Below, in pieces: positions 466 through 24,014 of a stretch of 64,000 nt of DNA; the stretch's first letter is position 1; every line of letters starts with the position of its first letter. The notes beneath the pieces are model-generated. The model saw only the letters and a program-made list of their open reading frames with translations. It made no database searches and was not told the DNA's origin. A program made the position numbers and the translations under genes. Origin of the DNA: Alphaproteobacteria bacterium (GTDB taxonomy: Bacteria > Pseudomonadota > Alphaproteobacteria > JANSWW01); contig JANSWW010000007.1 in assembly GCA_024743275.1 (NCBI GenBank), positions 4,256-68,255 of the forward strand. The letters are read 5' to 3'.

Positions 466-696
466 GTGTGGCGTAAACTGTCAGGTCAATACGGTCTCAG
501 CTCACACGGATGGATCAAGCAGGCCGGCTTGGATGACGGTCGGCGTGAGGACGGCCTGACCAGCGCCGAGCGGGAGGAACTGAAGCAGCTCCGCGAAGAG
601 AACCGCCAGCTCAAGGTTGAGCGTGACATCCTGTCAAAGGCCGCGGCCTGGTTTGCTCAGAACGACGTGACGTCTTCGAGGTCTTCGAATTCATGA
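466..696 (+). pseudogene. IS3-family transposase OrfA, C-terminal fragment only
   Basis: ...GLTSAEREELKQLREENRQLKVERDILSKAAAWFAQ is the typical IS3 OrfA zipper. The N-terminal HTH is missing. Confidence 0.6.
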
Positions 697-2377: not shown

Positions 2378-3132
2378 GCCCAACCAGCTATGGGTCGCAG
2401 ACATTACCTATGTCCCCAGCTGGGCCGGCTTCCTCTATCTGGCAGTCGTGCTCGATACCTACAGCCGCCGCGTCGTTGGTTGGTCCATGAGCTACAACCT
2501 CAAGGCCCAACTGGTCATCGACGCCATGAACATGGCCGTGGCACAGCGACGGCCGATCGACGTCATCCACCATTCTGACCAAGGCTCCCAATACACGTCC
2601 ATTGCATTCGGCCTGCGTTGCAAAGAGGCCAATGTCCGGCCTTCGATGGGATCGGTCGGGGATGCCTATGACAACGCCATGTGTGAGAGCTTCTTCGCGA
2701 CGCTCGAATGCGAATTGCTCGACCGGCGCAAGTTCAAAACCAAGGCCGAGGCCCGCATGGCCGTCTTTACGTTCATCGAAGGCTGGTACAACCCGGCCCG
2801 GCGACATTCCGCGTTGGGATACAAATCCCCCATCACCTTTGAAAGGAAACACTGTCAGATGCTAGAGGCCCAAAGCCATTAACCGTCCACAAAACCGGGG
2901 GAACTCCAACTCCAGACAGTGACGCAAGCTACGATCAGAGCGTGGCGGCGTAAATCACACCGAATGGCCTCCGGCAATCCCGGGGCGGTTCAACCACCTG
3001 CACCAGAATCCATCGTCACGATGGACCAGAGACCACCCATGCACTAACATTCAATCTGGACCAGTCAGATGAAGCTGCTCATTAGTCCGACAAACATTCA
3101 TCTGAAACTTATGAGCTCTAAGATCTACCGCT

Positions 3133-3540
3133 GTGGATATATTTTCTGAATCTGAACGATCAAAAAACATGGGGCGAATCGGTCCCAAGGATACCAAGCC
3201 GGAACTTCGCGTGCGCAAGCTCGCCCATCATCTGGGTTATCGTTTCAGACTGCACCGCAAAGATCTGCCCGGAACGCCAGACCTGATATTCCCCCGGTAC
3301 GGGGCTGCAGTATTCGTTCACGGATGCTTCTGGCACCGTCACCAAGGGTGCAAGTATGCAACGACACCGGCAACCCGGCGGGCCTTTTGGGAGACCAAGT
3401 TCAAGCGAAACGTCGCCCGGGATCGCTGGGCGATCGAAACATTGGAAGAGATGGGATGGAAAGTTCTCGTGATCTGGGAGTGCGAGACGCGCGACATCTC
3501 GAAGATGGAAGAGCGCCTTCAGGGGTTTCTCAAGCCGTGA
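3133..3540 (+). CDS. vsr: Very-short-patch-repair (Vsr) DNA mismatch endonuclease; GTG start
   Basis: SERSKNMGRIGPKDTKPELRVRKLAHHLGYRFRLHRKDLPGTPDLIFPRYGAAVFVHGCFWHRH...WKVLVIWECE carries the hallmarks of the Vsr family. Confidence 0.85.
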   Translation: MDIFSESERSKNMGRIGPKDTKPELRVRKLAHHLGYRFRLHRKDLPGTPDLIFPRYGAAVFVHGCFWHRHQGCKYATTPATRRAFWETKFKRNVARDRWAIETLEEMGWKVLVIWECETRDISKMEERLQGFLKP

Positions 3541-5015
3541 CCCATACGCTCCCGCGCACTTCCGCCGATGACGACCCGCGACCGGGGAAACGGCAGCGCA
3601 TCAAGCAAGGCGGACGGCCACGCGTGCTCGATCTCTTTTCCGGATGCGGTGGATTCTCGCTTGGCTTTCACCGAGTGGGCTTCGACATCACGTCGGGCAT
3701 CGACATCGACGCCGAGGCCGCTGCTTCCCACGCGCTTAATTTTTATCCCAAAGACGCTCACGCTGTCGCAAGGGACATCGTTTCGCTCGAGCCCGAGGAA
3801 GTGACCCGGGAATTCGGCTATGGTCGGGCAGACGAAGCGGTGGACGTCCTGATCGGCGGACCGCCCTGCCAATCCTATGCCCGTGTCGGACGCGCAAAGC
3901 TCCGCGAAACTGCCGCTCACCCGGAGGCCTACAGGATTGATCCAAGAGGCAATCTCTATCTGCGCTACCTGCATTTCGTCGAGGCGCTCAAGCCGCTCGT
4001 GATCGTCATGGAGAATGTACCGGACGCTCTAAATTACGGCGGCCACAACATCGCGGAGGAAACCGCGGAGGCGCTTGAGGACCTCGGCTACGAGTGCAGC
4101 TACACGCTGCTGAACGCCGTGTTCTATGGCGTACCACAGATGCGGGAACGCATGTTTCTCATCGCCTGCCATCGTTCACTTGTAAAGGCCCCAAGCTTTC
4201 CCGCGCCGACGCACCACTTCGATCTGCCCAGTGGCTACCTCAGTTCAAGAAGTGTCGCGACCAAGCTGCTTTCCGGGGACCTCCTGACCGAGCGCCCCTT
4301 CAGATTTACGGAGCCCCCGAGGTCGGATCCGAGACATTGCCAGAAGGCCGTGTCCGTCGGTGAGGCGCTTGGCGACCTGCCGCCGCTGAGGGAGCATCTT
4401 GAAGGGAAGATCAAACGTGGCATGCGCGACCTGTCCACAAGCCTACCCTATCGCAGGGTACGCCCTTCGCGATTTGCGCAGGAGATGCGGAACTGGACCG
4501 GATTCGAGAGCAAGAAGGGCGTGACGGGCCATGTGATCCGACACCTTCCGCGCGACTACCGGATTTTCCGTAAGATGCAGCCAGGCGACCAGTACCCAGA
4601 AGCGCATGCGCTTGCGGAGAGGCTCTTCGAAGAGCACCTCAAGCGCCTGAGCGTTAAGGGTGAACAGATCGAAGACGCCTCTCAACGCTATTTCGAAGAG
4701 AGGGCCAAGTTCGTTCCGCCGTATGATCCGGGAAAATTTCCGAACAAATGGCGAAAGCTGGCAGAGGGCGAACCGTCCCGAACCCTGATGGCGCATCTCG
4801 GCAAGGATTCATACTCTCACATTCATTATGATCATGATCAGGCCCGCACGATCTCCGTACGCGAGGCCGCTCGGTTGCAGTCTTTTCCCGACGGTTTCAT
4901 CTTCTCCGGTGCGATGAACGCCGCTTTCCGACAAATCGGGAATGCGGTCCCGCCTCTGATGGCCTACCAGATCGCCATGCATGTTGCGCGAGAAATTCTG
5001 GACTTGACGAGCTGA
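3537..5015 (+). CDS. dcm: DNA (cytosine-5)-methyltransferase (Dcm type). Probable GTG start at 3537 overlapping the vsr stop (GTGA).
   Basis: Motif I LDLFSGCGGFSLGF, motif IV GGPPCQSYA, motif VI VMENVP, motif X QIGNAVPPLMA. ORF 3324..5015 is in the same frame; its upstream part lies inside vsr. Confidence 0.85.
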   Translation: MTHTLPRTSADDDPRPGKRQRIKQGGRPRVLDLFSGCGGFSLGFHRVGFDITSGIDIDAEAAASHALNFYPKDAHAVARDIVSLEPEEVTREFGYGRADEAVDVLIGGPPCQSYARVGRAKLRETAAHPEAYRIDPRGNLYLRYLHFVEALKPLVIVMENVPDALNYGGHNIAEETAEALEDLGYECSYTLLNAVFYGVPQMRERMFLIACHRSLVKAPSFPAPTHHFDLPSGYLSSRSVATKLLSGDLLTERPFRFTEPPRSDPRHCQKAVSVGEALGDLPPLREHLEGKIKRGMRDLSTSLPYRRVRPSRFAQEMRNWTGFESKKGVTGHVIRHLPRDYRIFRKMQPGDQYPEAHALAERLFEEHLKRLSVKGEQIEDASQRYFEERAKFVPPYDPGKFPNKWRKLAEGEPSRTLMAHLGKDSYSHIHYDHDQARTISVREAARLQSFPDGFIFSGAMNAAFRQIGNAVPPLMAYQIAMHVAREILDLTS

Positions 5016-5080: not shown

Positions 5081-6613
5081 ATGCTAGCAGCGTATCGCGG
5101 GAGTGCAGTTCCTAGGGGCAGGGCGGAATTGGTTCACGGCATTTCAGAAGACAGCTCGTCGGAAGGGGTCGAACTCCCACCGCGGGCCACATCGCTGATG
5201 ATGTCGATGCGGGCGCTCGGATATAGCGTCGAGGCGTCGATAGCAGACTTGGCCGACAACAGCATCGCGGCGGAAGCCGAGACTATAGGGATCGAATTCG
5301 CTGCCACGCCTGAACCCTACTTGGCCGTCATAGATGACGGTTTCGGAATGGATCGCCAGACCCTGATCGAGGCAATGCGCTTTGGAAGCGCCGATCCGAG
5401 AATGGAGCGCCATGGGAATGATCTTGGTCGCTTCGGCCTTGGCCTGAAGACGGCCTCGCTCGCGCAGTGTCGCAAGGTCACGGTCCTGACAATGCATGAA
5501 GGAGAGCTGAACGCAGCCGAGTGGGATTTGGATGAATGTGAGAGGCGAGGGACCTGGTGGCTGAGTTGTCCTGATCCGGACCTTGCGGCGCCCGAGTATG
5601 CGGCGCGTCTCCGAAAAGAGGGCAAGGGAACAGTGGTTCTCTGGCGGGAGCTTGACCGCCTGATTCCAGAGATGACCGTGAGATCGGAGACTGCATTGGA
5701 CGACGCCTTGTCGGGCGTGCCGGACCACCTCGGCTTCACGTTCCACCGATTTACGGACAGCCGGGGGCCAAAGCCGCTCCGCATAGCGGTCAACAATCGG
5801 GATGTCCCGCAATTCGATCCGTTCCTCCAGGGTCACCCGCGCGGACAGAAGCTCCATGCGGAGTCATTTACGATCGACGGGCAAAAGGTGGAGGTGACGC
5901 CCTTCGTTCTGCCGTTCCCTTCCCGGCTCACGGGCGCAGAATTACAGAGGGCTGGCGGTCGCGAGAGCGTCAAGGGCGGCCACGGTTTCTACATCTATCG
6001 CGGAAACAGGCTAGTGGTGCCTGGGGGTTGGTTCCGGATCGTACCTTCGGACGAGCTTGTTCGGCTCGCTCGGGTGAAGGTCGACGTGCCAACCCAGCTC
6101 GATCACCTTTGGAAGGTCGACATCCGCAAGACCGTTCTGGAGCCGCCGAAGGAACTTCGAAGGAACCTGCGACGCATTGTCGGCGATGCATCCAAGCGAA
6201 GTCGGCGGGTATATCAGTTTCGCGGGAACAGGCAGCAGGGGGAATGCCACCGGCCGGTCTGGGCCAGATACACAGGTCGTGACAGCGCGGCTCAATGGCG
6301 TGTCGATCGCGAGCACCCTGTGGTGAAAGCCCTTGCATCCGAGAACGCGAACACGGTCGAGCAGCTGCTTCGCTTGATCGAAAACAGCCTTCCGGTCCAC
6401 GACATCCATGTGCATCTCGCAAACGATGTACCTGTGGCCGATGAATCCACCTTCAAGGAGCAGGAGTTGGAGGCGCTTGCACAGCGGCTTGTCGACTCAA
6501 TGGGCGAGGATCACGAGGCCAGACGCGCCCTCGTCGCTGGCCTGCCGGACATCGAGCCGTTCAGCAGGGATGTTGAGATGGCTGAAAGAATTGCGGCGAG
6601 GCTGGAGCCATGA
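5081..6613 (+). CDS. MutL/MORC-like GHKL-superfamily ATPase (HATPase_c_3 type ATP-binding protein). Start uncertain; an alternative ATG is at ~5198.
   Basis: Bergerat-fold motifs DLADNSIAA (N box), VIDDGFGM (G1) and GRFGLGLKTAS (G2) are present. Confidence 0.7.
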   Translation: MLAAYRGSAVPRGRAELVHGISEDSSSEGVELPPRATSLMMSMRALGYSVEASIADLADNSIAAEAETIGIEFAATPEPYLAVIDDGFGMDRQTLIEAMRFGSADPRMERHGNDLGRFGLGLKTASLAQCRKVTVLTMHEGELNAAEWDLDECERRGTWWLSCPDPDLAAPEYAARLRKEGKGTVVLWRELDRLIPEMTVRSETALDDALSGVPDHLGFTFHRFTDSRGPKPLRIAVNNRDVPQFDPFLQGHPRGQKLHAESFTIDGQKVEVTPFVLPFPSRLTGAELQRAGGRESVKGGHGFYIYRGNRLVVPGGWFRIVPSDELVRLARVKVDVPTQLDHLWKVDIRKTVLEPPKELRRNLRRIVGDASKRSRRVYQFRGNRQQGECHRPVWARYTGRDSAAQWRVDREHPVVKALASENANTVEQLLRLIENSLPVHDIHVHLANDVPVADESTFKEQELEALAQRLVDSMGEDHEARRALVAGLPDIEPFSRDVEMAERIAARLEP

Positions 6614-9444
6614 ATGAAATGAACAATGTCGAAAGCATCATCTCGACGGCTCAGGCGGGTCTGCGACTGGACCCTCCCCCCACCGAGGCGGAAATCGCCG
6701 AGTTTCTCGGCCGTTTGAAGGTCGCATTCAACATTGATGAACAGATCATCGAGAACGCTAGGATAGCTCTGCATGCCCGTTTCAATCATCGCATGGAGCT
6801 TGGGCAGACCATCCGGGACGACGACAGCCATGAACCATGGCTGTCCGCCCGCAAGGCGGAGATCGAACCCTTCTATTGGGAGCGCTACAGGAAGTTCCTG
6901 CTGCGCGGCGGTTGGGGTCCACACGTCGTCTCCACGCTGGATCAATCGCTCGACGAGATCCTAGATCTCCTAGGGGACCCTTCACAATCGGCCCCATGGA
7001 AGCGACGGGGACTGGTCGTCGGCGACGTCCAGTCGGGCAAGACCGCGACCTATGCGGGACTCATCAACAAGGCTTCCGACGCAGGGTACAGGATGATCAT
7101 TCTGCTCACCGGAACCTTGGAGAACGTGAGGAAGCAGACGCAGGAACGCCTGGACGCTGCTTTCGTAGGCTTTGACAGCCGCGACTACCTCTCCACCAGC
7201 CAGTTGCAGAGAAAAAAGCACGTCGGGGTCGGCCTGATCGACGGACGCCGGGACGGCGTCGTGTTCACGTCGCGCGACAAGGACTTTCGACGCGACACGG
7301 CCACCGCACTAAACATCTCGCTCGACTCGGTTCGGGACCCCGTTCTCGTCGTTGGCAAGAAGAACAAGGCGATCCTCGAACGAGTCGCAGCGTGGCTCCG
7401 AGCGAGGAACGCCGATCGAGATGGCAAGATCGATCTGCCGCTGCTGTTGATCGATGACGAGGCCGACAACGCCTCAATCAACACGAGGTCCAATCCTGAA
7501 GAGACCACGGCGATCAATCGGGCGATTCGGGACCTCTGCTCGCTCTTCAAGAGATCCAGCTATGTGGGGTTCACCGCCACTCCGTTCGCCAACATCTTTA
7601 TCGATCCGGACAGCACGGATAAGTGGCTGGAAGACGACCTGTTTCCCAAGGATTTCATCCACCTTCTAGAGGCGCCCAACAACTACATCGGCATGAACCG
7701 GATCTTTCCGGCGCGCGACGCCGACGACGGATCCCTGGACACGGCTGATGACGACGATCCTGACATGCTTGTCCAGATCGACGATGAGCTCGACTGGCTC
7801 CCCTCGGATCACAAGTCTCACGCCATGCCCGGCCCTCTGCCCAAATCTCTCAAGGAGGCGATGGATTGGTTTCTCCTGACCTGCGCGATCCGCGACCTCC
7901 GAGCCCAGAGCGACGCACCGGGAAAAGGCGGCGGACTGCATCGATCAATGCTCGTCAACGTATCCCGTTTCACGCGCATCCAGGATGAGGTGGCTGGAGA
8001 CCTTCAGCAGGAACTAGAGAGAATGCAGCGCTCTATCCGCTTCCATGGTGCGAAAGAGCCGTCGAAAGCTGCCGCCGAGTCCACCGACATTGCTCGTCTC
8101 GAGGAGGCGTTCCGAAAGTTCGGCGAAACGTGCGAGTTCGCGTGGGGCGATGTCCTGGCGAACCTGCACCAGGCGATCGCACCGGTTCGCGTGCAACCCA
8201 TCAACCAGCGGACCGGCTCCGCCGCTCTAGACTATGGTGCGGTCAAGACCGAGCCCGGCGTTCGGGTTATCGCTGTCGGAGGCAACAGTTTGTCTCGCGG
8301 CATCACGCTCGAAGGGCTTTGCGTCAGCTACTTCCTTCGGAACTCGAAGGCCTACGACACGCTGCTGCAAATGGGTCGTTGGTTCGGGTACAGGGATGGT
8401 TACGGCGACCTTTGCCGGATTTGGCTGAACCCAGAGGCAGAGGGTTGGTATCGGCACATCACATTGGCAACGTCGGAACTCAAGCGAGACTTTCGCCGAA
8501 TGCGCATTCAACGAGCTACTCCCCGAGAGTTCGGCCTCCGGGTGCGAACACATCCGGACACTCTGATCATCACGGCCCGCAACAAGATGGCGACCGGGAT
8601 GGATGTGGTGTCAGAGGTTCAGGAGGTCTCACTCACTGGGCGTGGCATCGAAACAGCTCGCGTACACAAGCGAAGCGACTACTCCGATGAAAACCGCAGA
8701 CTGGTGGAACGGTTTCTGTTGGATCTCTCCTCGTCAGCTGAACCTGAGCTGGTTCGCAAGGACGGGGCGTACCTGTGGAGCGGCGTTGACTCCGCGACAA
8801 TCGCCGACTTCGTGGAGCCTTTCCTGGTCCATCCTCTGAACCATGACTTCCAGGGCGACAGCATCGCCGAGCATCTGCGGGAAGCGGCGAGCGATCCTGA
8901 GCACCCATGGCGAACCTGGAATGTCGCGCTGCCGAGAAAGGGCGAGAAGCGGGGTGAGCCTTGGATCATGGAAGGTTCGGTGAGACTGGAGGCGGACCCG
9001 AAGCTCCGCCGTGTGGTCATCAAGAATGAGACGACGCCGCCCTCCCTGCTTTTGTCAGGAAGCAGCGCACGCGTCGGCAGCCGGACCGAGGTCCTCTACG
9101 GAATGAGCCCTGAGGAAGAGGGCGAAGCGTTACGGAGGGCCCAGGAGGAGGCGCCCTCTGCAAGGGCGATTCCCGAGGACGTGGCGCGTTCTGTGATGCA
9201 GCGCCCGCTCCTCGCGATCTACTTGGTCCGAGGCTATGTGAAGCATCCGAACAGCGACGAGAAGCCGCTATTCGAGGATGGCCGGATCATCCCAGCTCTC
9301 GGGCTGCACTTTCCTGGAGAAAAGGATCCGAACGCCAAGAAGCGGCTTGTCAAATACCGCCTCAACCGGATCGCACAGGCCGAGCTAGACATGGGCCTGG
9401 ACCTCGCCGACGATCGTCCGATCGACGAAGACTACGATGCTTGA
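6610..9444 (+). CDS. Z1-domain protein (large P-loop NTPase of the kind associated with Dcm/Vsr systems)
   Basis: Walker-A-like GLVVGDVQSGKTATYAGL. 944 aa. Start ATG overlaps the stop of the upstream gene (ATGA). Confidence 0.7.
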   Translation: MNEMNNVESIISTAQAGLRLDPPPTEAEIAEFLGRLKVAFNIDEQIIENARIALHARFNHRMELGQTIRDDDSHEPWLSARKAEIEPFYWERYRKFLLRGGWGPHVVSTLDQSLDEILDLLGDPSQSAPWKRRGLVVGDVQSGKTATYAGLINKASDAGYRMIILLTGTLENVRKQTQERLDAAFVGFDSRDYLSTSQLQRKKHVGVGLIDGRRDGVVFTSRDKDFRRDTATALNISLDSVRDPVLVVGKKNKAILERVAAWLRARNADRDGKIDLPLLLIDDEADNASINTRSNPEETTAINRAIRDLCSLFKRSSYVGFTATPFANIFIDPDSTDKWLEDDLFPKDFIHLLEAPNNYIGMNRIFPARDADDGSLDTADDDDPDMLVQIDDELDWLPSDHKSHAMPGPLPKSLKEAMDWFLLTCAIRDLRAQSDAPGKGGGLHRSMLVNVSRFTRIQDEVAGDLQQELERMQRSIRFHGAKEPSKAAAESTDIARLEEAFRKFGETCEFAWGDVLANLHQAIAPVRVQPINQRTGSAALDYGAVKTEPGVRVIAVGGNSLSRGITLEGLCVSYFLRNSKAYDTLLQMGRWFGYRDGYGDLCRIWLNPEAEGWYRHITLATSELKRDFRRMRIQRATPREFGLRVRTHPDTLIITARNKMATGMDVVSEVQEVSLTGRGIETARVHKRSDYSDENRRLVERFLLDLSSSAEPELVRKDGAYLWSGVDSATIADFVEPFLVHPLNHDFQGDSIAEHLREAASDPEHPWRTWNVALPRKGEKRGEPWIMEGSVRLEADPKLRRVVIKNETTPPSLLLSGSSARVGSRTEVLYGMSPEEEGEALRRAQEEAPSARAIPEDVARSVMQRPLLAIYLVRGYVKHPNSDEKPLFEDGRIIPALGLHFPGEKDPNAKKRLVKYRLNRIAQAELDMGLDLADDRPIDEDYDA

Positions 9445-10366
9445 GCAGCTCTGGGAGGATCTCAAGAGAGCCGGTGGAGGAGTGCAGCGGCGAATAGACG
9501 AAACGCACCCCCTCGATCTTTATGCCGACTACGATCTTCCGCAGAAGCCTGGTCTTGTGTTGTTCACGCCCCGGCGACCGCCGGATTACACCTCGATTCA
9601 GTCCATCCGAATGGAGACGAGGCAAAGGGACGACGGAAAGTGGTCGCTCCGCATGATGCTGGAGACGCCAACCCTCGAACCGGTCTTTGCAGAACTGTGT
9701 CGCGATATCGTCGAGTACACGAGGGAGAATGTGGAACCGGCTGCTGGACCTTCGGCATTCCTGACCAGAGTCGACAGATGGCGTCGGCTCCTGGAAAGAG
9801 GTGCTGCAGAGTTCGGCGTCGAAGCGGTGCGCGGCCTGATCGGCGAACTTCTTTTTATGAAGCACATCGCCTTTCGCGACCTTTCAAAAGGGGCGGCCCT
9901 GACTGCCTGGACCGGTCCGATAGGGGCGCCGCATGACTTCCTTTTTCCCGACGGCAGAAGGTTTGAGATCAAGACCGTAGGCGTTGCGGCAGATACCGCG
10001 CGGATCAACGGCCTCGCGCAGCTCGATGGCTTCGGCGGGACCTTGTCGCTCGTTGTCATTCGGATGGCGAAGACCGGAGCGGACAATCCATACGGTGTAG
10101 GCGTGAGCCGACTGGCGCGCGAGATCCACTCGGAGCTGGAGGAAGATCCGGGGCTTCAGGCGGAATTCCAGAGACTGCTGCGGCTGACCGGCTGGAGGGA
10201 GGGTGCCGAGCGTGAGCCCTATGCGGCGACCATCATGCAGATGGAGTTTCACGTAGTAGCCGACGCATTCCCCGCTCTCACGCGCGAATCCGTTCCAGAC
10301 GGCGTCGTCGAGGCCGATTATGAGATCAGATTGCCGCAACCTACCGAAACCGAGGTTCTCAACTGA
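9437..10366 (+). CDS. PD-(D/E)xK nuclease-fold protein
   Basis: ...GELLFMKH...HDFLFPDGRRFEIKTV... gives D...E-I-K spacing typical of the PD-(D/E)xK motif. Overlaps the Z1 gene by 8 nt. Confidence 0.55.
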   Translation: MLEQLWEDLKRAGGGVQRRIDETHPLDLYADYDLPQKPGLVLFTPRRPPDYTSIQSIRMETRQRDDGKWSLRMMLETPTLEPVFAELCRDIVEYTRENVEPAAGPSAFLTRVDRWRRLLERGAAEFGVEAVRGLIGELLFMKHIAFRDLSKGAALTAWTGPIGAPHDFLFPDGRRFEIKTVGVAADTARINGLAQLDGFGGTLSLVVIRMAKTGADNPYGVGVSRLAREIHSELEEDPGLQAEFQRLLRLTGWREGAEREPYAATIMQMEFHVVADAFPALTRESVPDGVVEADYEIRLPQPTETEVLN

Positions 10367-12444
10367 TGGAAATCGCCGACTATCATGCGGACCTGCTCGC
10401 ATCCGTCGCCTCAAGGTCCGAGGCGGCGGGGCTCTCATGGCGTGAGGGCTTTGTAACAGAAATGCTGGAACGGTTGCGTGACGGCAGTGAAGTGCCTGAC
10501 GCCGAGGTGTGCATTGAGCAGCTGAACGGCCCCAAGAACCGCAGGCTTCTTATCGACGCCTATGCCGAGGATGAGGCGGACAACAGCTTGCATCTCTTTG
10601 TCTGCCTTCCGCATGGAGAGAAGGGACCACCGGTACTCATTCCGTCCGAGGCCCGAGATCAGGGCTTTGTTCGCCTGCGCAATTTCTTGGACGCGGCACA
10701 GGCTGGCTGGGTGCGAGACAACATCGAAGAGAGCAGGCCCGCCTGGGCGCTGGCGCAACTTATCCGACGCCGCAATTTCAGCGCAGTACGCCTGCACATC
10801 CTGACGGATCGTCCCCTAAGTGAACGTCTGAAATCCATACCGGACGACACGACGGAGGATGGCGCCGTCATCACCTTCCAGATCTGGGACCTCACTCGTC
10901 TCAAACGTATCCACGACGCCCTCTCGGTGCGCGACGACCTGGAAGTGGATCTTTCGGAATGCGGCGGCGGCGGCCTGAAGGCTCTCCGTGCAACCAACGG
11001 AGATGAGGACTATGACGCCTACCTCGGCGTGATCGCAGCGGAGGATCTCGCGCGCATCTACATTCGCTACGGCAGCAGACTGCTTGAAGGCAACGTCCGT
11101 ACATTCCTTGGGCGGCGTGGGAATGTGAATAAGGGAATTCAGAAGACCCTGAACGAAGAGCCGTCGCGCTTCTTCGCCTATAACAACGGGATTGCCGCAA
11201 CCGCGTCCGGCGTGGAGATGGTCGAGGACGGGAACGGCGTCCTGGTCACTAAGGCGACGGACTTGCAGATAGTGAACGGTGCCCAGACGACCGCATCGCT
11301 CGCATCGGCATTACGTGACAAGAAGCTTCCGGAAGGAAACGTCTACGTGCCGGTGAAGCTCTCTGTGGTTTCAACGGAAGCGGCCGAGGAACTGATACCC
11401 CTTATCTCCCGCTACGCCAATAGTCAGAACGCGGTGCGGCAGAGCGACTTCTTCGCGAACCACCCATTCCACAGGCGCGTGGAGGAGATGTCCCGGCGCT
11501 TGCTGGCTCCTGCGACGGACGGAAGTCAGGTTCAGACGCACTGGTATTATGAGCGAGCCAGAGGTCAGTATTTGAACGACCAGGCGGGCCTAACCAGCAG
11601 CCAGAAATCGAAGTTCGTGGTCATGAACCCGAAAAAGCAGGTCATCACGAAGACCGACTTGGCCAAGGTGGAGACCTGCTTCGCTCTTCTGCCGGATACG
11701 GCCTGCCGCGGGGCCGAGAAGGCCTTCATCGAGTTCGCCAAGACGATCACCGACTTGTGGAAGGATGAGCAGCGGCGGGCAGAGTTCACCGACGACTGGT
11801 TCAAGTCGGCGGTCGCGCACGTTATCCTCTTCCGTCTGACCGAGAAGATCGTCTCAGGAGCCGAATGGTACGAAGGTGGTTACAGGGCGCAGATCGTCGC
11901 CTACGCCTGCGCTCGAATGGCAAAGCTAGCGAGCGAAGTTTCGGATGGAGGTCGCCTCGACTACCGGCGTATCTGGGGTCTTCAGGGTGTCGACGCTGCA
12001 TTCAAGCGGCAGATCGATTTGACGGCGGAGACGATGTCCCACGTCCTGAGGTCGCCGCCGCGAGAGGGACAGAACATCGGAGAATGGGCGAAACAGCAGG
12101 CTTGCCGGAGCATGGCCCTCGGCACTGACGTGGAGATCGTGAGGGGCTTCGAGGCGTGGGGCGTTGACAAGCACACCGCAAGGACTGAACGACGGGAACA
12201 GCGAGCCGTCGGCGCTATCGATGAAGACCTCAGGGCGATGGAGACGGTGCTCCAGACCTCGCCCGAGGTCTGGGATTCACTTCGCCATTACGCGCGAGCC
12301 CGGCGGCTACTTGGTCCGAGAGACGAGGCCGCGCTCAGTGCCGCCTGCCTTGAACGCGGTCGCCCCCCGAATGAGAATCAAGCGCAGGCCCTCATAGCCT
12401 TGTTGAAGCGAGCCGAGGATACTGGATGGGTGCCACCACAGTGA
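10366..12444 (+). CDS. AIPR-family (abortive-infection phage-resistance-like) protein
   Basis: Conserved FFAYNNGIAATAS...LQIVNGAQTTASL block. Start overlaps the upstream stop (TGATG). Confidence 0.7.
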   Translation: MEIADYHADLLASVASRSEAAGLSWREGFVTEMLERLRDGSEVPDAEVCIEQLNGPKNRRLLIDAYAEDEADNSLHLFVCLPHGEKGPPVLIPSEARDQGFVRLRNFLDAAQAGWVRDNIEESRPAWALAQLIRRRNFSAVRLHILTDRPLSERLKSIPDDTTEDGAVITFQIWDLTRLKRIHDALSVRDDLEVDLSECGGGGLKALRATNGDEDYDAYLGVIAAEDLARIYIRYGSRLLEGNVRTFLGRRGNVNKGIQKTLNEEPSRFFAYNNGIAATASGVEMVEDGNGVLVTKATDLQIVNGAQTTASLASALRDKKLPEGNVYVPVKLSVVSTEAAEELIPLISRYANSQNAVRQSDFFANHPFHRRVEEMSRRLLAPATDGSQVQTHWYYERARGQYLNDQAGLTSSQKSKFVVMNPKKQVITKTDLAKVETCFALLPDTACRGAEKAFIEFAKTITDLWKDEQRRAEFTDDWFKSAVAHVILFRLTEKIVSGAEWYEGGYRAQIVAYACARMAKLASEVSDGGRLDYRRIWGLQGVDAAFKRQIDLTAETMSHVLRSPPREGQNIGEWAKQQACRSMALGTDVEIVRGFEAWGVDKHTARTERREQRAVGAIDEDLRAMETVLQTSPEVWDSLRHYARARRLLGPRDEAALSAACLERGRPPNENQAQALIALLKRAEDTGWVPPQ

Positions 12445-12918: not shown

Positions 12919-14133
12919 GTGTGGCCTATGATCTTTCACCACTTCGAAATCGGGAAGATCAGTTTCGATGTCGTAGACGGAAGTATCTTCGACCTTGGGG
13001 CTGACGTGATCGTAAGCAGCGAAAACACTCGTTTTGACATGGCTTCGCCAGACGCTCCGTCTGTCAGCGGCCAGTTGAGTGGCATCTGCGGTATGCCGTT
13101 GCAACACGCATTGTATGAGCAAACCGATGGCGGTGTCATGCCCGCCGGGACTATCATTAAAACTAATGGATTCGGGGCTGCGAGACAGATTTACCACCTT
13201 GGTATTCATCAGCCAGGTCAATGGCTAGATGATGCCGAAGATCGAGATACCCGCGAAACAGAATATGTAGACCTTATTTCGGCGTGGGTGTCAGATATCC
13301 TAGAGCAGTTTGCGGCGTCGACGCACGGCTCAATTGCACTTCCGCTCGTCGGCTGCGGAGTGTTTGGGATTTCACCCACATTGATGGGCCGCCAGATCCT
13401 GCGACGCGTCATTGAAGCCTCAGGTAAACCTGCAATGCCGCCTGGCAAACGCATCATGCTGGCTATCCAAGAGCCAGCATCCACCCAACGGGTGCTTGAT
13501 GACATTTTCCAGAGTGTTCTAGACCTCCAAGCTCCAGCAGACCTGCCCGACCTCAGGATCGGTATTGAGCCGATCGACCATTATGTGGACACGAAAGTAA
13601 CAGGTACGAATGGCCGGTTGGCAGCTTGGAGTCTGTGCAACTACGCAGCGACCTTGACCAGCTTCATGGTTTGCCGGCTTGCCACCTATTTGGGCATCAC
13701 GGAGCCTAAGATGATTTTTCCAAGGACTGGGCCCGTTTCATTTGGGAGTTTCGAAGAAAAAGGGATAGCACTCTCCTCTCAGATCGACGACAGGTCGCCG
13801 GAAGACGTAAAACTTATAGCAAACATCTTGGCTCCAAATACCCCAACTCGCGCAGCGCTCCAACGGATCGTCGCGGACCGCAACAACATTGCCCACGATC
13901 GAGCACATCGCAGCTTAGAAGCGATCACAGAAGACACCCTTACGTTCTCACAACCCAAACGTTGGCGCTCCAACACTCAGAACCCACGTTGTGACGACCT
14001 GTTGGCAAAGCCGTGGGCAGCTCGAACAGAAGGAAACGGCTATACGGGGTTATTCCACCGATATGAAAAAAACGCGCTCTACTACTGCGTTCCTCACACT
14101 GGGCTCTTGTTCAAGCAGGCTCACAGCACATAA
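12919..14133 (+). CDS. Macro-domain protein (ADP-ribose binding/processing fold) with an uncharacterised C-terminal half containing an R-x4-H motif; lower-GC gene
   Basis: N-terminal DGSIFDLGADVIVSSEN..., GTIIKTNGFGAARQIYHLGIHQPG and HGSIALPLVGCGVFGISP resemble macro-domain blocks. C-terminal ...RIVADRNNIAHDRAHRS. Confidence 0.5.
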   Translation: MWPMIFHHFEIGKISFDVVDGSIFDLGADVIVSSENTRFDMASPDAPSVSGQLSGICGMPLQHALYEQTDGGVMPAGTIIKTNGFGAARQIYHLGIHQPGQWLDDAEDRDTRETEYVDLISAWVSDILEQFAASTHGSIALPLVGCGVFGISPTLMGRQILRRVIEASGKPAMPPGKRIMLAIQEPASTQRVLDDIFQSVLDLQAPADLPDLRIGIEPIDHYVDTKVTGTNGRLAAWSLCNYAATLTSFMVCRLATYLGITEPKMIFPRTGPVSFGSFEEKGIALSSQIDDRSPEDVKLIANILAPNTPTRAALQRIVADRNNIAHDRAHRSLEAITEDTLTFSQPKRWRSNTQNPRCDDLLAKPWAARTEGNGYTGLFHRYEKNALYYCVPHTGLLFKQAHST

Positions 14134-14211: not shown

Positions 14212-14679
14212 TCATGACGGCGGGTCGGATGCGCCGTCTCGGTACGCCAGTGCGATCGGGACTATATAGCCGATCGCACTGTGCGGACGATCCTCGTTAT
14301 AGAACCTGCGCCAAGCCTCCATTTTTTCTCGGGCATCTGCAAGCGTCATGAACCAGTGGACGTTCAGACACTCCTGGCGGAATTTGCTGTTAAAGGCTTC
14401 GATGAACGCATTGTCCGTCGGCTTGCCGGGTCGGGAGAAGTCGAGGGTGACGGCATTCGCATAGGCCCATAGATCCAGGTCCCGAGAGACGAACTCGCTT
14501 CCTTGATCCACGCGGATTGTCTTTGGGACACCATGAACAGCGCAGACATTATCCAGGGTTCTGACAACATCTTCGCCCCGATAGCTGAACAACGGATCGA
14601 GCGCCGGGCAAAACCGGGACCAGGTGTCTACGATGGTCAGCACCTTTAACTGTGAATCGGCGTCGGCAGTTGACCCCAA
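14212..14679 (-). pseudogene. IS3-family (IS407-group-like) transposase OrfB, C-terminal integrase-core fragment
   Basis: ...LDFSRPGKPTDNAFIEAFNSKFRQECLNVHWFMTLADAREKMEAWRRFYNEDRPHSAIGY. No OrfA and no N-terminal part are present. Confidence 0.65.
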
Positions 14680-17794: not shown

Positions 17795-18175
17795 CTAAAA
17801 ACCAAAAGCGGGCGGTGTCGGCTCACGATCAAGCTGAAAAGATCGGAGCAGGTCATAAGAATCGACAAGGAGAACAATATCGGCCTGTGTCTCGGCGGCA
17901 AACTCCTGATTCATTGCATCGAAATCATCGGGGTTTTCAGACATTCTCCTTCGCACCCAATAGGTCAGTCCTTTGTGGCCGGCTTCGAGCAGGGTCAAAG
18001 GCACGTCGCCTAGGTCGCCGTTCATATCCGCGCGGGTTAGTGCGGCCGTGGTCGCAGTGTAGCGCGCAAGCAGCACCGCATTGGGCATCTTAGAAACTGA
18101 GACGGCTTTGAATCCTGGTGGAATATCCGCCGAGTTAAGCGGGGCGGCGATGAGAATTGGTCCTTCAAATTTCAT
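17795..18175 (-). CDS. Hypothetical protein (126 aa), lower-GC, 4-nt overlap with the upstream gene
   Basis: ORF only; no recognised motifs. Confidence 0.4.
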   Translation of the reverse strand: MKFEGPILIAAPLNSADIPPGFKAVSVSKMPNAVLLARYTATTAALTRADMNGDLGDVPLTLLEAGHKGLTYWVRRRMSENPDDFDAMNQEFAAETQADIVLLVDSYDLLRSFQLDREPTPPAFGF

Positions 18176-19281
18176 TGGACTTTTCCTTTCTGTCTTTTTG
18201 GGAGAAGGTCGGCTTCATCGAAAGCATGCTTCGCCTCGGACAAGAATGAGGCGAAGGCGTGGAAATCTCGATTAGCGTTTGCCGGGCGGCGACCCAACCG
18301 CTTGGCCACGTCGGCCGGTCCGAATCTTGGAAGCTCCATGAGGGGGAAAGGTGCTTGCTCGAAGGCTTGCTGGATCGCAAGCGGTAGAGGTCTAAAAATC
18401 CCTGTCTTCCAGCCAGCGCCTGTTGCAGGGGCACGCAAAATCTCTAAGTGGCTCGATCGTCTCGCCTGAAGAGTGTCGCGCGCGCTCACGACGTTGATCA
18501 GACTGAGCCGTTTGATGCTTGGCTCTATGGCCTCAAGCAAGCGAGCTGTGAATTGGTCGAAGGAGGTCATGTCGGTGTTGTGTGGCACGAACCAAACGAC
18601 GCTCGTGGTCGATACCAGTTCGACTAACCTTCGTTTGATATGATCGACCAGGTTCCGCGGCCGCAGACAAACGAGGCGGATACGCGGAAGGGAGGTAGAA
18701 CGCGGGACAGTTTCACCGTGCTTTGGTCCTGCCTCGGCGGAGTTGGCTGCGCACTGCCGTGCCATCACCGTGAGCCCATGGCACTGTTCTGCAGCTAAAT
18801 CACCTTGGAACTCAATAGATAGCGCGACTCCTTTCGACTTCAGGCTGGCTACCAAGGCGGCGACCACGCTGGTGATCCCATCCAACGCGGGATCGATAAC
18901 GCAAATCATCGTGGCCGGCTCGATCGCCCCGTCGGTAGACCTCGGGGCGCTACGAGGGGCGACCACGTCGGGGGCCTGATTGTGCGCCTCGTCTGTCGGC
19001 GTGTGATGTTGGCCCTTCGAGGCTTGGCTAGATGTTGTCATGCACCTGCGCTGCCTAGCCCGAGTCGCAGCCCCGGACAACGTCTTCGCGGGGTATGGCC
19101 CATCGGCTCGACCTATGCCGAACTCGTAAAAGAGACGTGCCGAGAGAGCGGCCCAAGTTCCAGATTCAGTCTTCAGCGCATCAAGGGTATCGAGATTTCC
19201 TTCGAAGAGTTCCTGGACGGTGGGCTGGCGACCGTCTGCATAGTTTCCAAGGTACGTGTGAAGGCGCGTCGATGGGCTCAT
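18172..19281 (-). CDS. Hypothetical protein (~370 aa; ORF extends to 19386, likely start MSPSTR at 19281)
   Basis: ORF with a possible Rossmann-like segment MICVIDPALDGITSVVAALVASLKSKGVALSIEF. Function unknown. Confidence 0.4.
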   Translation of the reverse strand: MSPSTRLHTYLGNYADGRQPTVQELFEGNLDTLDALKTESGTWAALSARLFYEFGIGRADGPYPAKTLSGAATRARQRRCMTTSSQASKGQHHTPTDEAHNQAPDVVAPRSAPRSTDGAIEPATMICVIDPALDGITSVVAALVASLKSKGVALSIEFQGDLAAEQCHGLTVMARQCAANSAEAGPKHGETVPRSTSLPRIRLVCLRPRNLVDHIKRRLVELVSTTSVVWFVPHNTDMTSFDQFTARLLEAIEPSIKRLSLINVVSARDTLQARRSSHLEILRAPATGAGWKTGIFRPLPLAIQQAFEQAPFPLMELPRFGPADVAKRLGRRPANANRDFHAFASFLSEAKHAFDEADLLPKRQKGKVQ

Positions 19282-20051
19282 GGCTGCAGTCCTCGTTGAG
19301 GTGAGATTTGGGTGGGGGCACAGTCCTCGTCTGCAGAGGGAGAGTCGGGCCTGGGTATAGGGACTATGGACCGAGTGCGCATACATTCGCCTGCAGTGGG
19401 CACTGCGGCTAACGAAACAGGTTTAGGGTCAGAGGATTGCAGTACCGGCTGCAGTGGTTCGACAGGCTGCAGTTGAGAAACTTTGCGGCTCTCCGCAGCG
19501 GCCTCCGGTCGAGGCATCGGTTGCCTGGCGACGCCAAAATCGTTTGCGTCGGTAAGCCGGAGCGACTGCCAGTATTCGCGCACTGCGCGATGAAACCGCA
19601 CTCGGATTCGATTCAGTGGAATCGAGCGTCCCGTCAAAGGATGCGGCAGCGCAATTGCGGCGTGAAGGTGCCAGACACCGGTAGAACCGTCCGGCGCATG
19701 CAGTGCAGTCAACATGATACGATCACTGCAGTCGATGGCAGCGGCGCCGGCGAGGAAGGCACTGAGCAGTGCCTGATGCAACTGATTGACAGAGCTCTTG
19801 TTAGGCATCGGCGACAGAACGGCATTGAGCGCTTTGTACCGCAGATTTTTGTTATCCGCCGCGGCCTCGAAAATCGAAATCGCAGTGCCAGCGTCGAGCA
19901 CGACCGACGGGTCAATACCTGTGTTCAGCAGCGTTACAGCGCCAGTTCGACGCCCGACGCGTTCGTCGGACATTGCGCCGCGGACGTTATAGCGGGCAGC
20001 ACGCGCCGCGCTGCGATGGAAGCTTAATCGCGTGATCATTTGCGGCTCCAC
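19278..20051 (-). CDS. Putative MobA/MobL-like relaxase domain protein
   Basis: N-terminal MITRLSFHRSAARAARYNVRG resembles relaxase motif I. STGVWHLHAAIALPHP carries an H-x-H metal motif like relaxase motif III. Sits directly downstream of a MobC-like gene. Confidence 0.4.
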   Translation of the reverse strand: MEPQMITRLSFHRSAARAARYNVRGAMSDERVGRRTGAVTLLNTGIDPSVVLDAGTAISIFEAAADNKNLRYKALNAVLSPMPNKSSVNQLHQALLSAFLAGAAAIDCSDRIMLTALHAPDGSTGVWHLHAAIALPHPLTGRSIPLNRIRVRFHRAVREYWQSLRLTDANDFGVARQPMPRPEAAAESRKVSQLQPVEPLQPVLQSSDPKPVSLAAVPTAGECMRTRSIVPIPRPDSPSADEDCAPTQISPQRGLQP

Positions 20052-20422
20052 CGGGTCAGGCCCGCGTTTGAGATCGCGGCCGATAGTTCCCCGCCAACGT
20101 GCGGTCCATGGAGCCTGACGAGCTCCGATTGGCAGGTTGACGCCAGCGCCCTCAGCGTTTGCGGCGAGACCGTCAGGTCTTGCGGGCGTGCCTCTAAATG
20201 ACGCACGGCCCTGAGAATTGTTAGTAGTAGACCAAGGTCACTATGCAACGGGAGCGGGTGGCCCGCGACAACCCAGGTCGGGTCCTGGTGGTGGAGAGCT
20301 AAACCCAACTTCACAAGATCAACCACGGTGCGGCTGAACTCCCCCGGTCGAGCACATAGCGCCTCAACCGAGTTCTCAACTTCGGGGGGAAACCGAAGGG
20401 TGCGGGGGCGGCTATTCGGCAT
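20036..20422 (-). CDS. MobC-like ribbon-helix-helix mobilisation accessory protein (start taken at MPNSRPRTL)
   Basis: RTLRFPPEVENSVEALCARPGEFSRTVVDLVKLGL resembles MobC/RHH relaxosome proteins. Confidence 0.4.
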   Translation of the reverse strand: MPNSRPRTLRFPPEVENSVEALCARPGEFSRTVVDLVKLGLALHHQDPTWVVAGHPLPLHSDLGLLLTILRAVRHLEARPQDLTVSPQTLRALASTCQSELVRLHGPHVGGELSAAISNAGLTRWSRK

Positions 20423-20594
20423 CTGCCTGCCCTCCAGCGATGAATTCGTTGATAGCAGATTGCCGCCACCGCGGGCGGCGCAAACAGCGGATTGGGGGCG
20501 GGAAATCACCTCGATTCAGGTAGTTGTAGAGGGTGCTGCGTGAGATCCGCAGCGAAGCACACACCTCATTGATGGTCAAAAGTTTATCAACCAT
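20412..20594 (-). CDS. alpA: AlpA-family phage/island regulatory protein (excisionase-like HTH)
   Basis: LLTINEVCASLRISRSTLYNYLNRGDFPPPIRCLRRPRWRQSAINEFI. Confidence 0.7.
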   Translation of the reverse strand: MVDKLLTINEVCASLRISRSTLYNYLNRGDFPPPIRCLRRPRWRQSAINEFIAGGQADAE

Positions 20595-20817
20595 AGAGAC
20601 ACCTCAGTGGAAACGTTTGGTTCTTCACTGGTATCTCGTAGATTCTGTTTTCATGCGCCAAAAAGTTTACGATCACCGCTTTGAAGTGTTCAGCCCAGCA
20701 TTATACGCTCAAAGGTAGTTTTGTGTTATTCTGCCGTAAAATCAATCGCTTATGATATTACCCGAACGTTCTGTAATATTTCGAAAAAACCGCATGCAAC
20801 CCAGGGAATAGTAGCGC

Positions 20818-21960
20818 TCAACCCGTCAAGAACGCTGCCCAGCGCTCCATGAGATCACGCCGTTGGTCTAGATAATCAGTCCGCCGATAGGCTCGCGTTA
20901 CTTCGGACCCCACCTTGTGGCCGAGCGCCGTCTCCGCGATCTCTTCGGAAATGTCGGTCGCCTCGGCGCACCAGGTTCTAAACGTAGACCTGAACCCATG
21001 TGGCCGCGCCTCCATCCCCTTACGTTTCATATAGTTGGACATCGTCATGTCGCTGATGACCCCTTTGCGAGGGTTTGCAAAGAAGAAGCCCCGTCTTTCA
21101 TGCGCCTCCGCAAGCGAAAGGACGCGCTGGGCTTCGCGGGACAACGGGACCCGGTGTTCGATACCTGTTTTTGTTCGAACGCTCGGGATTGTCCAAAGGT
21201 CGCCATCGACCTCGTTAACATGAATGAAGCGAACCTCGCCGGAGCGACACGCCGTGAGAATCGTTAAGCGAAGGGCCAGCTCCGTCGAAGAGTCTCCGAG
21301 AGATTTGTAAAAGTCAGGGGCCTCGCTCCAGGGAAGAGCTGGAATGTTCCGGGTCTGGTGGCGTGATCTGCCCAGCAGCAACTTTGCTTTAGCGCAGGCC
21401 TGGATGTCGACATCCAGTCCCATCGCAGCTGCGTGTTTCAGGCATAGGTTCAGGCGGTTCATTGACTTCCTAGCCGTCTCGGCCTTGGCATGCCAAATCG
21501 GTCGCAGGGTGTTCGCAATATCCCTTTGGTCGATTTCCGTGATGGGGACGTCCCCGAGTCGGGGTAGGACGTGTAGTTCAAGCGGGGTGAACCACCGACC
21601 GGATTTGCCGTCGTTCTTCAGTTCGGCCTTCCTGGCCTCAAACGTTGCGTAAGCGATGTCCTTCAGCAGATGGCCACCCCGTTCGCGTTCACGGCGTTCC
21701 CTCTGACGCTCCTTGATCGGGTCCTTACCCTCACGAACAAGCCGACGTGCGGTCTCAGCATGAAGGCGCGCATCCTTTAGGCTCACGTCCCGGATCGACC
21801 CTAGGCCCATCTCGCGGCGGCGCCCGTGGACGCTTACCCTGAGCATCCATTGCCCACCACCGTCTCCGCGTTTGATGAGCCACAACCCTCCACCGTCCGG
21901 ATGCTTCCCGGCCGGGGCGTGTTTGACGGCCGCCGCAGAAAGCCTATGGAGCTGCCTCAT
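20818..21960 (-). CDS. int: Tyrosine recombinase/integrase, P4-like (DUF4102 N-domain plus catalytic core); start taken at MRQLH (21960), ORF extends to 22029
   Basis: N-terminal ...GKHPDGGGLWLIKRGDGGGQWMLR. C-terminal ...HGFRSTFRTWCAEA...LGHK...AYRR..Y with conserved R, H-x-x-R and Y residues. Confidence 0.85.
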   Translation of the reverse strand: MRQLHRLSAAAVKHAPAGKHPDGGGLWLIKRGDGGGQWMLRVSVHGRRREMGLGSIRDVSLKDARLHAETARRLVREGKDPIKERQRERRERERGGHLLKDIAYATFEARKAELKNDGKSGRWFTPLELHVLPRLGDVPITEIDQRDIANTLRPIWHAKAETARKSMNRLNLCLKHAAAMGLDVDIQACAKAKLLLGRSRHQTRNIPALPWSEAPDFYKSLGDSSTELALRLTILTACRSGEVRFIHVNEVDGDLWTIPSVRTKTGIEHRVPLSREAQRVLSLAEAHERRGFFFANPRKGVISDMTMSNYMKRKGMEARPHGFRSTFRTWCAEATDISEEIAETALGHKVGSEVTRAYRRTDYLDQRRDLMERWAAFLTG

Positions 21961-22375
21961 TCTGGTCCACCCTTTCATCCACCCTCGATATATGGACAGG
22001 TTTGGATGATCCGCAATGAAAATGGACACTTAAAGCACTGAAAAAAAAGATGTTAATTCAGTTTGATGGTCAGGGTAAAACAATCCTGAACAGTTTAAGT
22101 GTGCCCTCCAACGGCACCATTTTTTAAAAAGAGATCATTTAAAATCAGCGACTTGATCGGAATCTGATCTTGGATGTCCACGGCCCGGCCCGGAGACATG
22201 GGTAACAGTTTGTACCCAAGACATGCCCGGGACATGTGGGGCAGTTTCCAAGAAAACCGCGTGACAAGGCGTCAAATCCGCCGAACCCGGCGGATTGTGC
22301 AAGAGACTCCCCCGCCGAGGAGGGGGTCGGACAAGGCGCCGGATCCGCTGATCCCTCCCGGGCCAACTCCCGACG

Positions 22376-22423
22376 ATCGATCCACTCCGCCAGCGACCCA
22401 CTCCGCCAGCGACCCACTCCGCC
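22376..22423. repeat. Three tandem 16-bp direct repeats CGA(T/C)CCACTCCGCC(A/G)(G/A) in the junction between the integrase and ask
   Basis: Seen directly: cgatccactccgccag / cgacccactccgccag / cgacccactccgccga. Confidence 0.6.
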
Positions 22424-22465
22424 GACGTGTATGGGTAGAAGACTATCGCCGCGTTCAAGGTCCCG

Positions 22466-23959: not shown

Positions 23960-24014
23960 AGGGGATCCTTTGGGTCTTTCGCTTTCTGCTGGCTCGGCGG
24001 TTGGAGGCGGTCGA

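Follow-up and report, generated by a model that had tools for sequence, protein, structure and literature searches.

A 64,000-nucleotide stretch of DNA from an Alphaproteobacteria bacterium (lineage JANSWW01; assembly GCA_024743275.1, contig JANSWW010000007.1, positions 4,256 to 68,255), referred to here as the window, was analysed around a single gene whose product joins an N-terminal macrodomain to a C-terminal half that is probably an RNase module of the HEPN type. The gene, called Macro-HEPN below, lies inside an integrase-bearing mobile island of ~21 kb, the features of which are listed in Table 1. The island carries an operon of Vsr, Dcm and MzaBCDE, in which the Mza system is complete by PADLOC, and Macro-HEPN follows this operon between two remnants of insertion sequences (IS). 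After the island come core-genome ectoine, PAS-HD and MotAB genes; an aspartokinase and the ectoine-synthesis cluster adjoin directly beyond the integrase (20412-24055 region). No tRNA gene was found anywhere in the 64-kb window, and the attachment site is therefore not a tRNA within it.

The gene was read from the ATG at 12928, as in the NCBI start call. An alternative GTG start at 12919 gives an open reading frame (ORF) of 12919..14133 (+) and a product of 404 instead of 401 amino acids (aa); residue numbering throughout is that of the 401-aa form. The product is identical to protein NXI16_10320 (P0001) of the metagenome-assembled genome, which is named 'hypothetical protein' at NCBI and has no precomputed Pfam domain. 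The ORF is full-length, with neither a frameshift nor a premature stop, and all four peptides quoted in a preliminary description of this DNA (ADVIVSSEN, GFGAARQIYHLGIHQPG, HGSIALPLVGCGVFGISP and ADRNNIAHDRAH) are present in its translation. That description also had the gene as AT-richer than its surroundings and as lying between IS66 and IS3 remnants beside a defence operon, and both statements agree with our results. The G+C content (GC) of the gene is 52.9% against ~60% nearby (0.529, versus 0.600 for the Vsr-Dcm-Mza operon, 0.668 for IS21 and 0.614 for the whole window), and the position follows from the Pfam and PADLOC matches in Table 1. The window copy is a horizontally acquired, IS-flanked solo gene beside the Mza system. 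Scans for promoters, terminators and repeats around it gave nothing above chance.

Table 1. Features of the mobile island and of the Macro-HEPN gene, in window positions.
Feature	Location	Strand	Basis or remark
IS256/Mutator-family transposase	1076-2341		First feature listed in the island
Vsr	3133-3540
Dcm	3324-5015
MzaB, MzaC, MzaD, MzaE	5081-12444		PADLOC, E 1e-12 to 1e-131
IS66 C-terminal remnant, 67 aa	12495..12698	+	Between mzaE and the gene; PF13817 DDE_Tnp_IS66_C, E 5.6e-14
Macro-HEPN gene	12928..14133	+	ORF list; ATG start, 401 aa, stop codon included
Macrodomain, PARP14-macro2 / macroH2A-like type, residues ~5-200	12940..13527	+	Pfam, PDB profile, Foldseek
Glycine loop G142-C-G144-V-F146-G, diphosphate-binding loop 2	13351..13368	+	G142, G144 and F146 invariant in 36
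Helical HEPN-like domain, residues ~205-350	13540..13977	+	Predicted model, weak HEPN profile matches
R-x4-H motif R318-N-N-I-A-H323 (CGC AAC AAC ATT GCC CAC)	13879..13896	+	Conservation in alignment A1
Small C-terminal beta-sheet subdomain, residues ~355-401	13990..14130	+	Predicted model
IS3-type integrase-core (rve) remnant	14212..14679	-	Immediately 3' of the gene; PF13683, E 1.9e-25; PF00665, E 5.2e-14
IS21 istA/istB			3' of the IS3 remnant
Four consecutive ORFs (126, 404, 257 and 157 aa)	17795-20509	-	No Pfam match; between IS21 and the AlpA/integrase end
AlpA-like regulator and tyrosine integrase	20412-22029		Island end

The homologue family was obtained by comparing the protein exhaustively with 1.84 billion cluster representatives; 107 proteins passed E<=1e-3 and 72 passed E<=1e-10, the family being put at ~95 homologue clusters. 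About 35 of the proteins were full-length relatives of ~400 aa that aligned from end to end at 25-35% identity and had the same architecture, and the weakest matches were eukaryote-type Macro-Macro-PARP proteins. A word-indexed homologue search returned only the protein itself when the protein was the query, and two more members when the query was the alignment of the 36 full-length members (alignment A1, about 28% identity). Ten residues of the N-terminal half were invariant in A1 (V29, F36, L62, H90, G92, L125, P139, G142, G144 and F146), as were five of the C-terminal half (F272, N319, A322, H323 and W363). Because residues of both halves are invariant and the string R-N-x-x-A-H occurs in all full-length relatives, the pattern of conservation indicates that the two-domain architecture is under selection as a unit. 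No relatives were found by tblastn against plasmids and phages or in a scan of IMG/VR, so the family looks chromosomal and rare. PADLOC 2.0 has no model for it, PHROGs gave no match to the window protein, and NCBIfam gave marginal matches (E ~0.1).

The N-terminal half was assigned at the level of the family. Pfam Macro (PF01661) was matched by 36/36 members with a best E of 8e-14; the window copy alone matched at E 9.6e-4 with 19.5 bits, under the gathering score of 22, and its matches to macrodomain structures were likewise weak. When the family profile was compared with PDB sequences, the second macrodomain (macro2) of PARP14 was matched at E 3.6e-27, followed by the macro2 domains of PARP15 (6e-15) and PARP9 (2e-12) and by AF1521 (5e-12). 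Further matches were PARP14 macro3, TTHA0132 and macroH2A1.1, and MacroD-type hydrolases ranked after these. A full-length AlphaFold2 (AF2) model built on alignment A1 had a mean predicted local distance difference test score (pLDDT) of 92.6 and a predicted template modelling score (pTM) of 0.90. Foldseek with this model gave 219 PDB matches at E<=1e-3, the 50 of them that were listed being macrodomains or designs built on one; the best was 3q71 (E 1e-8), and target-normalised template modelling scores were 0.70-0.81 for single-domain targets. Family profile, solved-structure profile search and predicted model together bear out the macro fold put forward in the preliminary description, and identify the N-terminal half as a three-layer alpha/beta/alpha macro fold.

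The positions expected to contact ADP-ribose (ADPR) were well kept in the family: D19 in 91% and N30 in 94% of sequences, S47-G48 kept, and G142, G144 and F146 in 100%. We take D19 to be the adenine-contacting Asp of macrodomains and N30 to be the distal-ribose Asn of their VN motif. The family glycine loop aligned with FPAIGTGNLG of PARP14 macro2 and FPAISTGVYG of YmdB. The position of the catalytic Asp of MacroD and YmdB (GGGVD loop) was occupied by a near-invariant Ser (T-I-S-G-Q), as in PARP14 macro2, and membership in the MacroD-type hydrolases was rejected on this ground. Macrodomains of the macroH2A-like class, that of PARP14 among them, are binders of ADPR metabolites and of ADP-ribosylated proteins and lack catalytic activity (PMC11204291). 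Since this non-catalytic class is the closest one and a Ser stands at the MacroD Asp position, we infer from class resemblance that the macrodomain would be a binder or sensor and not an eraser.

In the C-terminal half the most conserved feature was the R-x4-H motif. N319, A322 and H323 were invariant in 36 members, R318 was present in 35/36 with K in the remaining one, and R-N-x-x-A-H was missing only from shorter fragments that do not reach this region. A single R-x4-H in the window protein alone is unremarkable, as 0.71 such strings per protein are expected by chance at this composition and RN...H occurs in 2.2% of shuffles; it is the conservation that carries weight, the string being kept across 36 homologues at ~28% identity, and for this reason it is not a chance occurrence. 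A separate AF2 model of residues 205-401 had a pLDDT of 95.0. The predicted helices were a short one at 214-223, a long one at 229-254, and those at 306-322 and 330-341, with an insert of ~50 residues (255-305) that contains two short helices between the second and the third. In both models the motif takes up the final turn of helix 306-322 (residues 102-118 of the half model), and a loop leads from there to helix 330-341. The long helix carries E241, an acidic residue 94% conserved in the family. The beta subdomain that follows was modelled with strands at 364-366, 373-380, 383-387 and 394-398; it includes the invariant W363 and P389, which is at least 90% conserved in A1.

HEPN domains are marked by R-x4-6H with typically N, D or H after the R, by the location of Rx4H at a helix end or the start of the following loop, by a further acidic residue conserved in helix 2, and by inserts between helices 2 and 3 that set them apart from other four-helix bundles (PMC3710099, Anantharaman et al. 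2013). In its alignment and predicted models the family has a polar Asn after the Arg and the motif at the helix end; E241 in the long preceding helix, which is Ala in the window copy and in its nearest relative P0002, may correspond to the acidic residue of helix 2, and the insert at 255-305 to that between helices 2 and 3. Pfam comparison of 35 C-terminal halves matched HEPN_RiboL-PSP in 15/35 (best E 2.8e-4), HEPN_MAE_28990 in 6 and HEPN_Swt1 in 4, and these three HEPN families were the sole ones matched by more than one member; NTase_sub_bind and HepT-like were each matched by a single member. The PADLOC models for Csx1/Csm6 (CARF+HEPN) were weakly matched in 2/36 members. RiboL-PSP-HEPN is a distant relative of AbiD and AbiF, and RNase function has been inferred for HEPN domains that retain the motif, with non-catalytic HEPN domains existing too (PMC3710099). 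The C-terminal half is probably an HEPN-type RNase module, and the HEPN-like R-x4-H module proposed earlier is supported by motif conservation, helix-end position and recurrent weak HEPN profiles. Foldseek searches of the C-terminal model against PDB and viral structures gave helical-bundle noise with no significant match to a solved HEPN. A stomatin match of the C-terminal profile against PDB sequences was rejected as a chance DReeIAH string. Fold prediction neither rejected a macro fold for the first half nor gave the second an unrelated structure without HEPN-like placement of the R/H pair.

Some relatives departed from the common layout. P0066, P0068 and P0074 (572-587 aa) form a sub-clade with an N-terminal extension of ~175-190 aa that has no assigned domain, and their glycine loop reads GTG-x-Y instead of GCG-x-F. 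P0086 (524 aa) is a more distant macrodomain protein in which a coiled-coil-like linker follows the macrodomain; its C-terminal domain differs and carries QLRNELVHEG, another RN-x3-H signature. Because of this second signature, fusions of Macro and HEPN-like domains may have arisen more than once.

The genomic contexts of relatives were compared over 37 related loci, 4 from genomes and 33 from metagenomes, some being near-duplicates. The only neighbour families common to at least 3 independent loci were hsdM, hsdS and hsdR. Genes of type I restriction-modification (R-M) systems adjoined or enclosed the Macro-HEPN gene in 7/37 loci (L005, L007, L009, L013, L014, L020 and L022). Its place within them varied: the order was hsdM-hsdS-MacroHEPN-hsdR in L009, hsdS-[GmrSD_N+SLFN/AlbA_2]-MacroHEPN-hsdR in L013 and hsdM-hsdS-[77 aa]-MacroHEPN in L020, a remnant of HsdM_N/HsdS lay directly upstream in L007 and L022, hsdM and hsdR were alongside in L005, and in L014 hsdM-hsdS preceded a Macro-HEPN reading frame that runs on in frame into a truncated hsdR. 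The interval from hsdS to hsdR is also the site of PrrC and further HEPN 'Abi' genes (PMC3710099; PMC3458546), and the match in position supports the reading of the C-terminal half as an RNase. The bracketed gene of L013 (L013:1310-3574(+)) encodes a 754-aa GmrSD_N + Schlafen/AlbA_2 protein, so that two accessory defence genes share one hsd locus. The fused ORF of L014 (L014:6687-9884(+), 1065 aa) joins Macro-HEPN, at positions 5-381 of the family hidden Markov model (HMM), to an HsdR part without the N-terminal nuclease region, the SWI2_SNF2 match starting at profile position 77; it would have arisen either through a deletion that fused the two genes or through an error of assembly.

Other neighbours were an MspJI-like endonuclease (L011, E 4e-61), AbiEi (L033), and NYN with patatin (L012). 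Loci L002 and L003 are paralogous and lie on two contigs of Thiorhodococcus minor DSM 11518, with VWA/CobT and RadC upstream and a sigma-54 activator, ARPP-1 and a DEAD-box helicase of ~1250 aa downstream; a downstream protein of 1137 aa without a Pfam match is annotated in L002 only. The pair probably represents two copies of a large mobile element. In L021 a 295-aa protein (L021:95-982(+)) upstream of a truncated member contains RRNSELH, another R-x4-H string, and may be a second HEPN-like gene in that locus. The contigs of members P0108 and P0069 were short and uninformative.

Genes related to NAD or ADP-ribose metabolism occurred beside a few members. An ADP-ribosylglycohydrolase (DraG/ARH3-like, E 4e-14; L006:1801-2919(+)) lay directly downstream in L006, and a SIR2-like protein (E 4.6e-4; L025:5801-6775(-)) was found 1.1 kb from the member in L024, L025 and L026. 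In L032 (metagenome contig Ga0315334_10031928) a full-length member at 245-1672(+), matching the family HMM at E 1e-85, was convergent with a TIR gene at 1694-3226(-), 22 bp apart. All PDB matches of the TIR protein (21/21, best E 6e-6) were TIR domains. The two L032 proteins have in common a 46-aa N-terminal domain (52% identity, E 1e-11) with weak likeness to the GYF domain, which in the TIR protein is followed by the TIR domain and a C-terminal region of ~300 aa without an assigned domain. To judge by their sequences, the two might make up a pair of the Thoeris kind whose effector is an RNase. A partner DarT-like or ADP-ribosyltransferase (ART) gene had been suggested as something to look for. 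None was found among the annotated parts of the window, in which no dedicated DarT profile search was made, and none was conserved across the related loci.

The best explanation for these observations, held with slightly better than even confidence, is that Macro-HEPN would be an HEPN RNase gated by an ADP-ribose ligand and acting in abortive infection. The macrodomain would be the sensor; its ligand would be ADP-ribose, a signal derived from ADP-ribose, or a macromolecule bearing ADP-ribose that arises in the course of phage attack. Once the ligand is bound, the HEPN domain would be released or assembled. Like other HEPN RNases, it would work as a dimer, and its metal-independent cleavage of tRNA, mRNA or rRNA would stop translation. 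For the solo copies, candidate sources of the ligand include other NADases of the cell (TIR or SIR2) and the ADP-ribosyltransferase activity of phages. The preliminary description had left the choice between an abortive-infection factor and an anti-ADP-ribosylation factor; the former is the better reading, since a macrodomain of the non-catalytic reader kind fits the latter less well.

A more far-reaching form of this proposal is tentative, and we consider it on balance doubtful. In it the family would be the effectors of an undescribed branch of NAD-derived signalling, in which the product of a TIR or SIR2 enzyme or of a phage ADP-ribosyltransferase is read by the PARP14-like macrodomain and activates the HEPN RNase. 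The L032 TIR and Macro-HEPN proteins, with their common N-terminal adaptor domain, would then be a complete signalling system. The solo copies in R-M operons or beside Mza would be free-standing listeners that trigger abortive infection once DNA restriction fails.

The closest parallels to the proposed gated RNase are PrrC/RloC and the R-M-embedded HEPN 'Abi' genes (Abi2/AbiD/AbiF, RiboL-PSP-HEPN clade; PMC3710099). These likewise have a C-terminal effector of the HEPN type with Rx4H, an N-terminal nucleotide-binding regulatory domain and a recurrent location between hsdS and hsdR and in defence islands, and by analogy the expected outcome would be abortive infection by RNA cleavage. The regulatory domain is, however, a macrodomain here and an ABC ATPase in PrrC. 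Only the motif region matches the RiboL-PSP, MAE_28990 and Swt1 profiles, below threshold, and Macro-HEPN has the extra C-terminal beta subdomain. The window copy lies next to a Dcm-linked Mza system, with the IS66 remnant in between. Csm6/Csx1 (CARF-HEPN) and RNase L (2-5A sensor with KEN/HEPN) appear to have a common design with it, a small-nucleotide sensor controlling a dimeric HEPN RNase, but their sensor folds are others and their ligands are cyclic oligoadenylate or 2-5A, and Macro-HEPN has no CRISPR or OAS association.

In type II Thoeris, His-ADPR is sensed by the ThsA macrodomain, which leads to effector activation (bioRxiv 10.64898/2025.12.03.692087). ThsA (transmembrane-Macro) would by analogy resemble Macro-HEPN in that a macrodomain receives an ADP-ribose-derived signal and is joined to an effector that kills the cell, and the L032 member lies beside a TIR protein as ThsB is the TIR partner in Thoeris. 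The effector of ThsA is a membrane pore, whereas the C-terminal half here is modelled as soluble, helical and beta. The macrodomain is nearer to PARP14 macro2, the PADLOC ThsA model gave E 0.059 for the window copy, and each of two ThsA1 models matched 1/36 members at E 0.002-0.004. A TIR neighbour was missing in 36/37 related loci. The nearest relatives of the N-terminal domain in sequence and structure are the macrodomains of PARP14, PARP15 and PARP9, but the window protein is bacterial, has a single macrodomain, lacks a PARP catalytic domain and is fused to an HEPN-like module. DarG resembles Macro-HEPN in length (~350-400 aa) and in having an N-terminal macrodomain before a helical C-terminal half; the differences are the absence of a darT neighbour, a macrodomain that is not TARG1-like, and the HEPN signature of the C-terminal half. 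Membership in DarG was rejected, there being no darT among the annotated neighbours (no dedicated DarT profile search was made) and the family profile matching the DarG macrodomain 5m31 at E 0.019 versus 3.6e-27 for PARP14 macro2.

Several results weigh against a ligand-gated RNase in abortive infection. All HEPN profile matches were under the Pfam gathering scores (28.4 bits for HEPN_RiboL-PSP) and spanned only ~35 residues around the motif, and the window copy's own C-terminal half matched no Pfam family. No signal-producing partner was conserved across the 37 loci, TIR, SIR2-like and ARH genes occurring in one locus group each; the TIR gene of L032 is convergent with its neighbour and so is not in the same operon. 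When the TIR, SIR2-like and ARH neighbours of relatives were used as queries against the ORFs of the window, nothing similar was found, the TIR search being a phmmer run with the single L032 query and thus a weak test. Neither a sigma-70-like promoter site nor a strong ribosome-binding site was found upstream of the window copy. This copy also departs from the consensus at 21 of the 74 columns that are at least 80% conserved, and among its changes (including D19S, N30S, E241A, W293D and G324D) the first three affect residues expected to matter for ligand binding or for HEPN function.

Three other explanations were weighed against the gated RNase. The protein could be an anti-ADP-ribosylation enzyme, in which an active macro hydrolase strips ADP-ribose set by phage or toxin ADP-ribosyltransferases, as DarG and MacroD do, and the C-terminal domain targets the substrate or neutralises the toxin. 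A DarG-like layout of a macrodomain and a helical C-terminal domain of ~200 aa is consistent with this, as are matches of 11/36 members to the PADLOC DarG model (best E 6.2e-7), the retention in the family of N30 and H90, which in MacroD-type enzymes take part in catalysis or contact the ribose, and the ADP-ribosylglycohydrolase neighbour in L006, which points to ADP-ribose turnover. With Ser in place of the MacroD Asp, a family profile far closer to PARP14 macro2 than to 5m31, no DarT or other ADP-ribosyltransferase annotated next to the gene in the window, hsd genes as the only conserved neighbours, and the invariant RNxxAH left unexplained, we regard such an enzyme as distinctly improbable. 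We give an equally low probability to a C-terminal domain that is not a nuclease but a helical binding or regulatory module, its RNxxAH serving to bind a ligand or partner, which would make the protein an ADP-ribose reader or adaptor that, for example, modulates the adjacent restriction complex. Active HEPN RNases have as their triad-like catalytic set exactly such an Arg, a polar residue after it and a His, and in the family these are the most conserved residues of the C-terminal half, RNase function is inferred for HEPN domains that keep the motif (PMC3710099), and the position in type I R-M operons is that of known HEPN anticodon nucleases. These points speak for a nuclease, against the lack of a significant structural match to solved HEPN RNases, the sub-threshold profile matches centred on the motif, the existence of non-catalytic HEPN domains (PMC3710099) and the loss of the helper acidic residue E241 from the window copy and P0002.

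The remaining explanation concerns the window copy only, which might be an inactive relic stranded between IS fragments, irrespective of the function of other members. Among the 36 members it ranks third in divergence, with D19, N30, E241, W293 and G324 changed; two truncated IS elements flank it, its GC is low, its upstream region lacks a promoter-like site or clear ribosome-binding site, and truncated or frameshifted copies exist in L005, L021 and L030. The ORF is nevertheless full-length and uninterrupted, the model is confident (pLDDT 92.6), and the glycine loops and RNxxAH are intact despite D19S and N30S. N30S recurs in ~12 other family sequences and E241A is also found in the nearest homologue, P0002, and for this reason the window copy may owe these changes to being a subtype of altered specificity and not to decay; what it binds, or how active it is, may not be typical of the family. 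We consider a relic unlikely, and retain the ADP-ribose-gated HEPN RNase as the preferred reading.

A full-text literature search found no description of a Macro-HEPN fusion, and none of the papers containing both HEPN and macro(domain) describes this architecture. The 2013 HEPN census reported a pEK499_p136-like HEPN family in operons with ART and Macro genes and no fusion (PMC3710099), and a 2025 survey of TIR-based systems makes no mention of HEPN effectors. Macro-HEPN most likely belongs among the nucleotide-sensor-coupled HEPN nucleases, as a fusion not described in the literature found. HEPN RNases coupled to a sensor (Csm6, RNase L, PrrC) and macrodomain signal receptors (type II Thoeris ThsA) are each established designs of immunity, and no account of a protein that joins the two was found. 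As a small family of single genes encoding ~400 aa, it is directly testable. If the proposed reading is true, bacterial signalling based on ADP-ribose would gain an output that degrades RNA, and bacterial macro readers would be connected with the PARP14-type antiviral macrodomains of animals. The family would then also be a further case of a fail-safe suicide module inside R-M operons.

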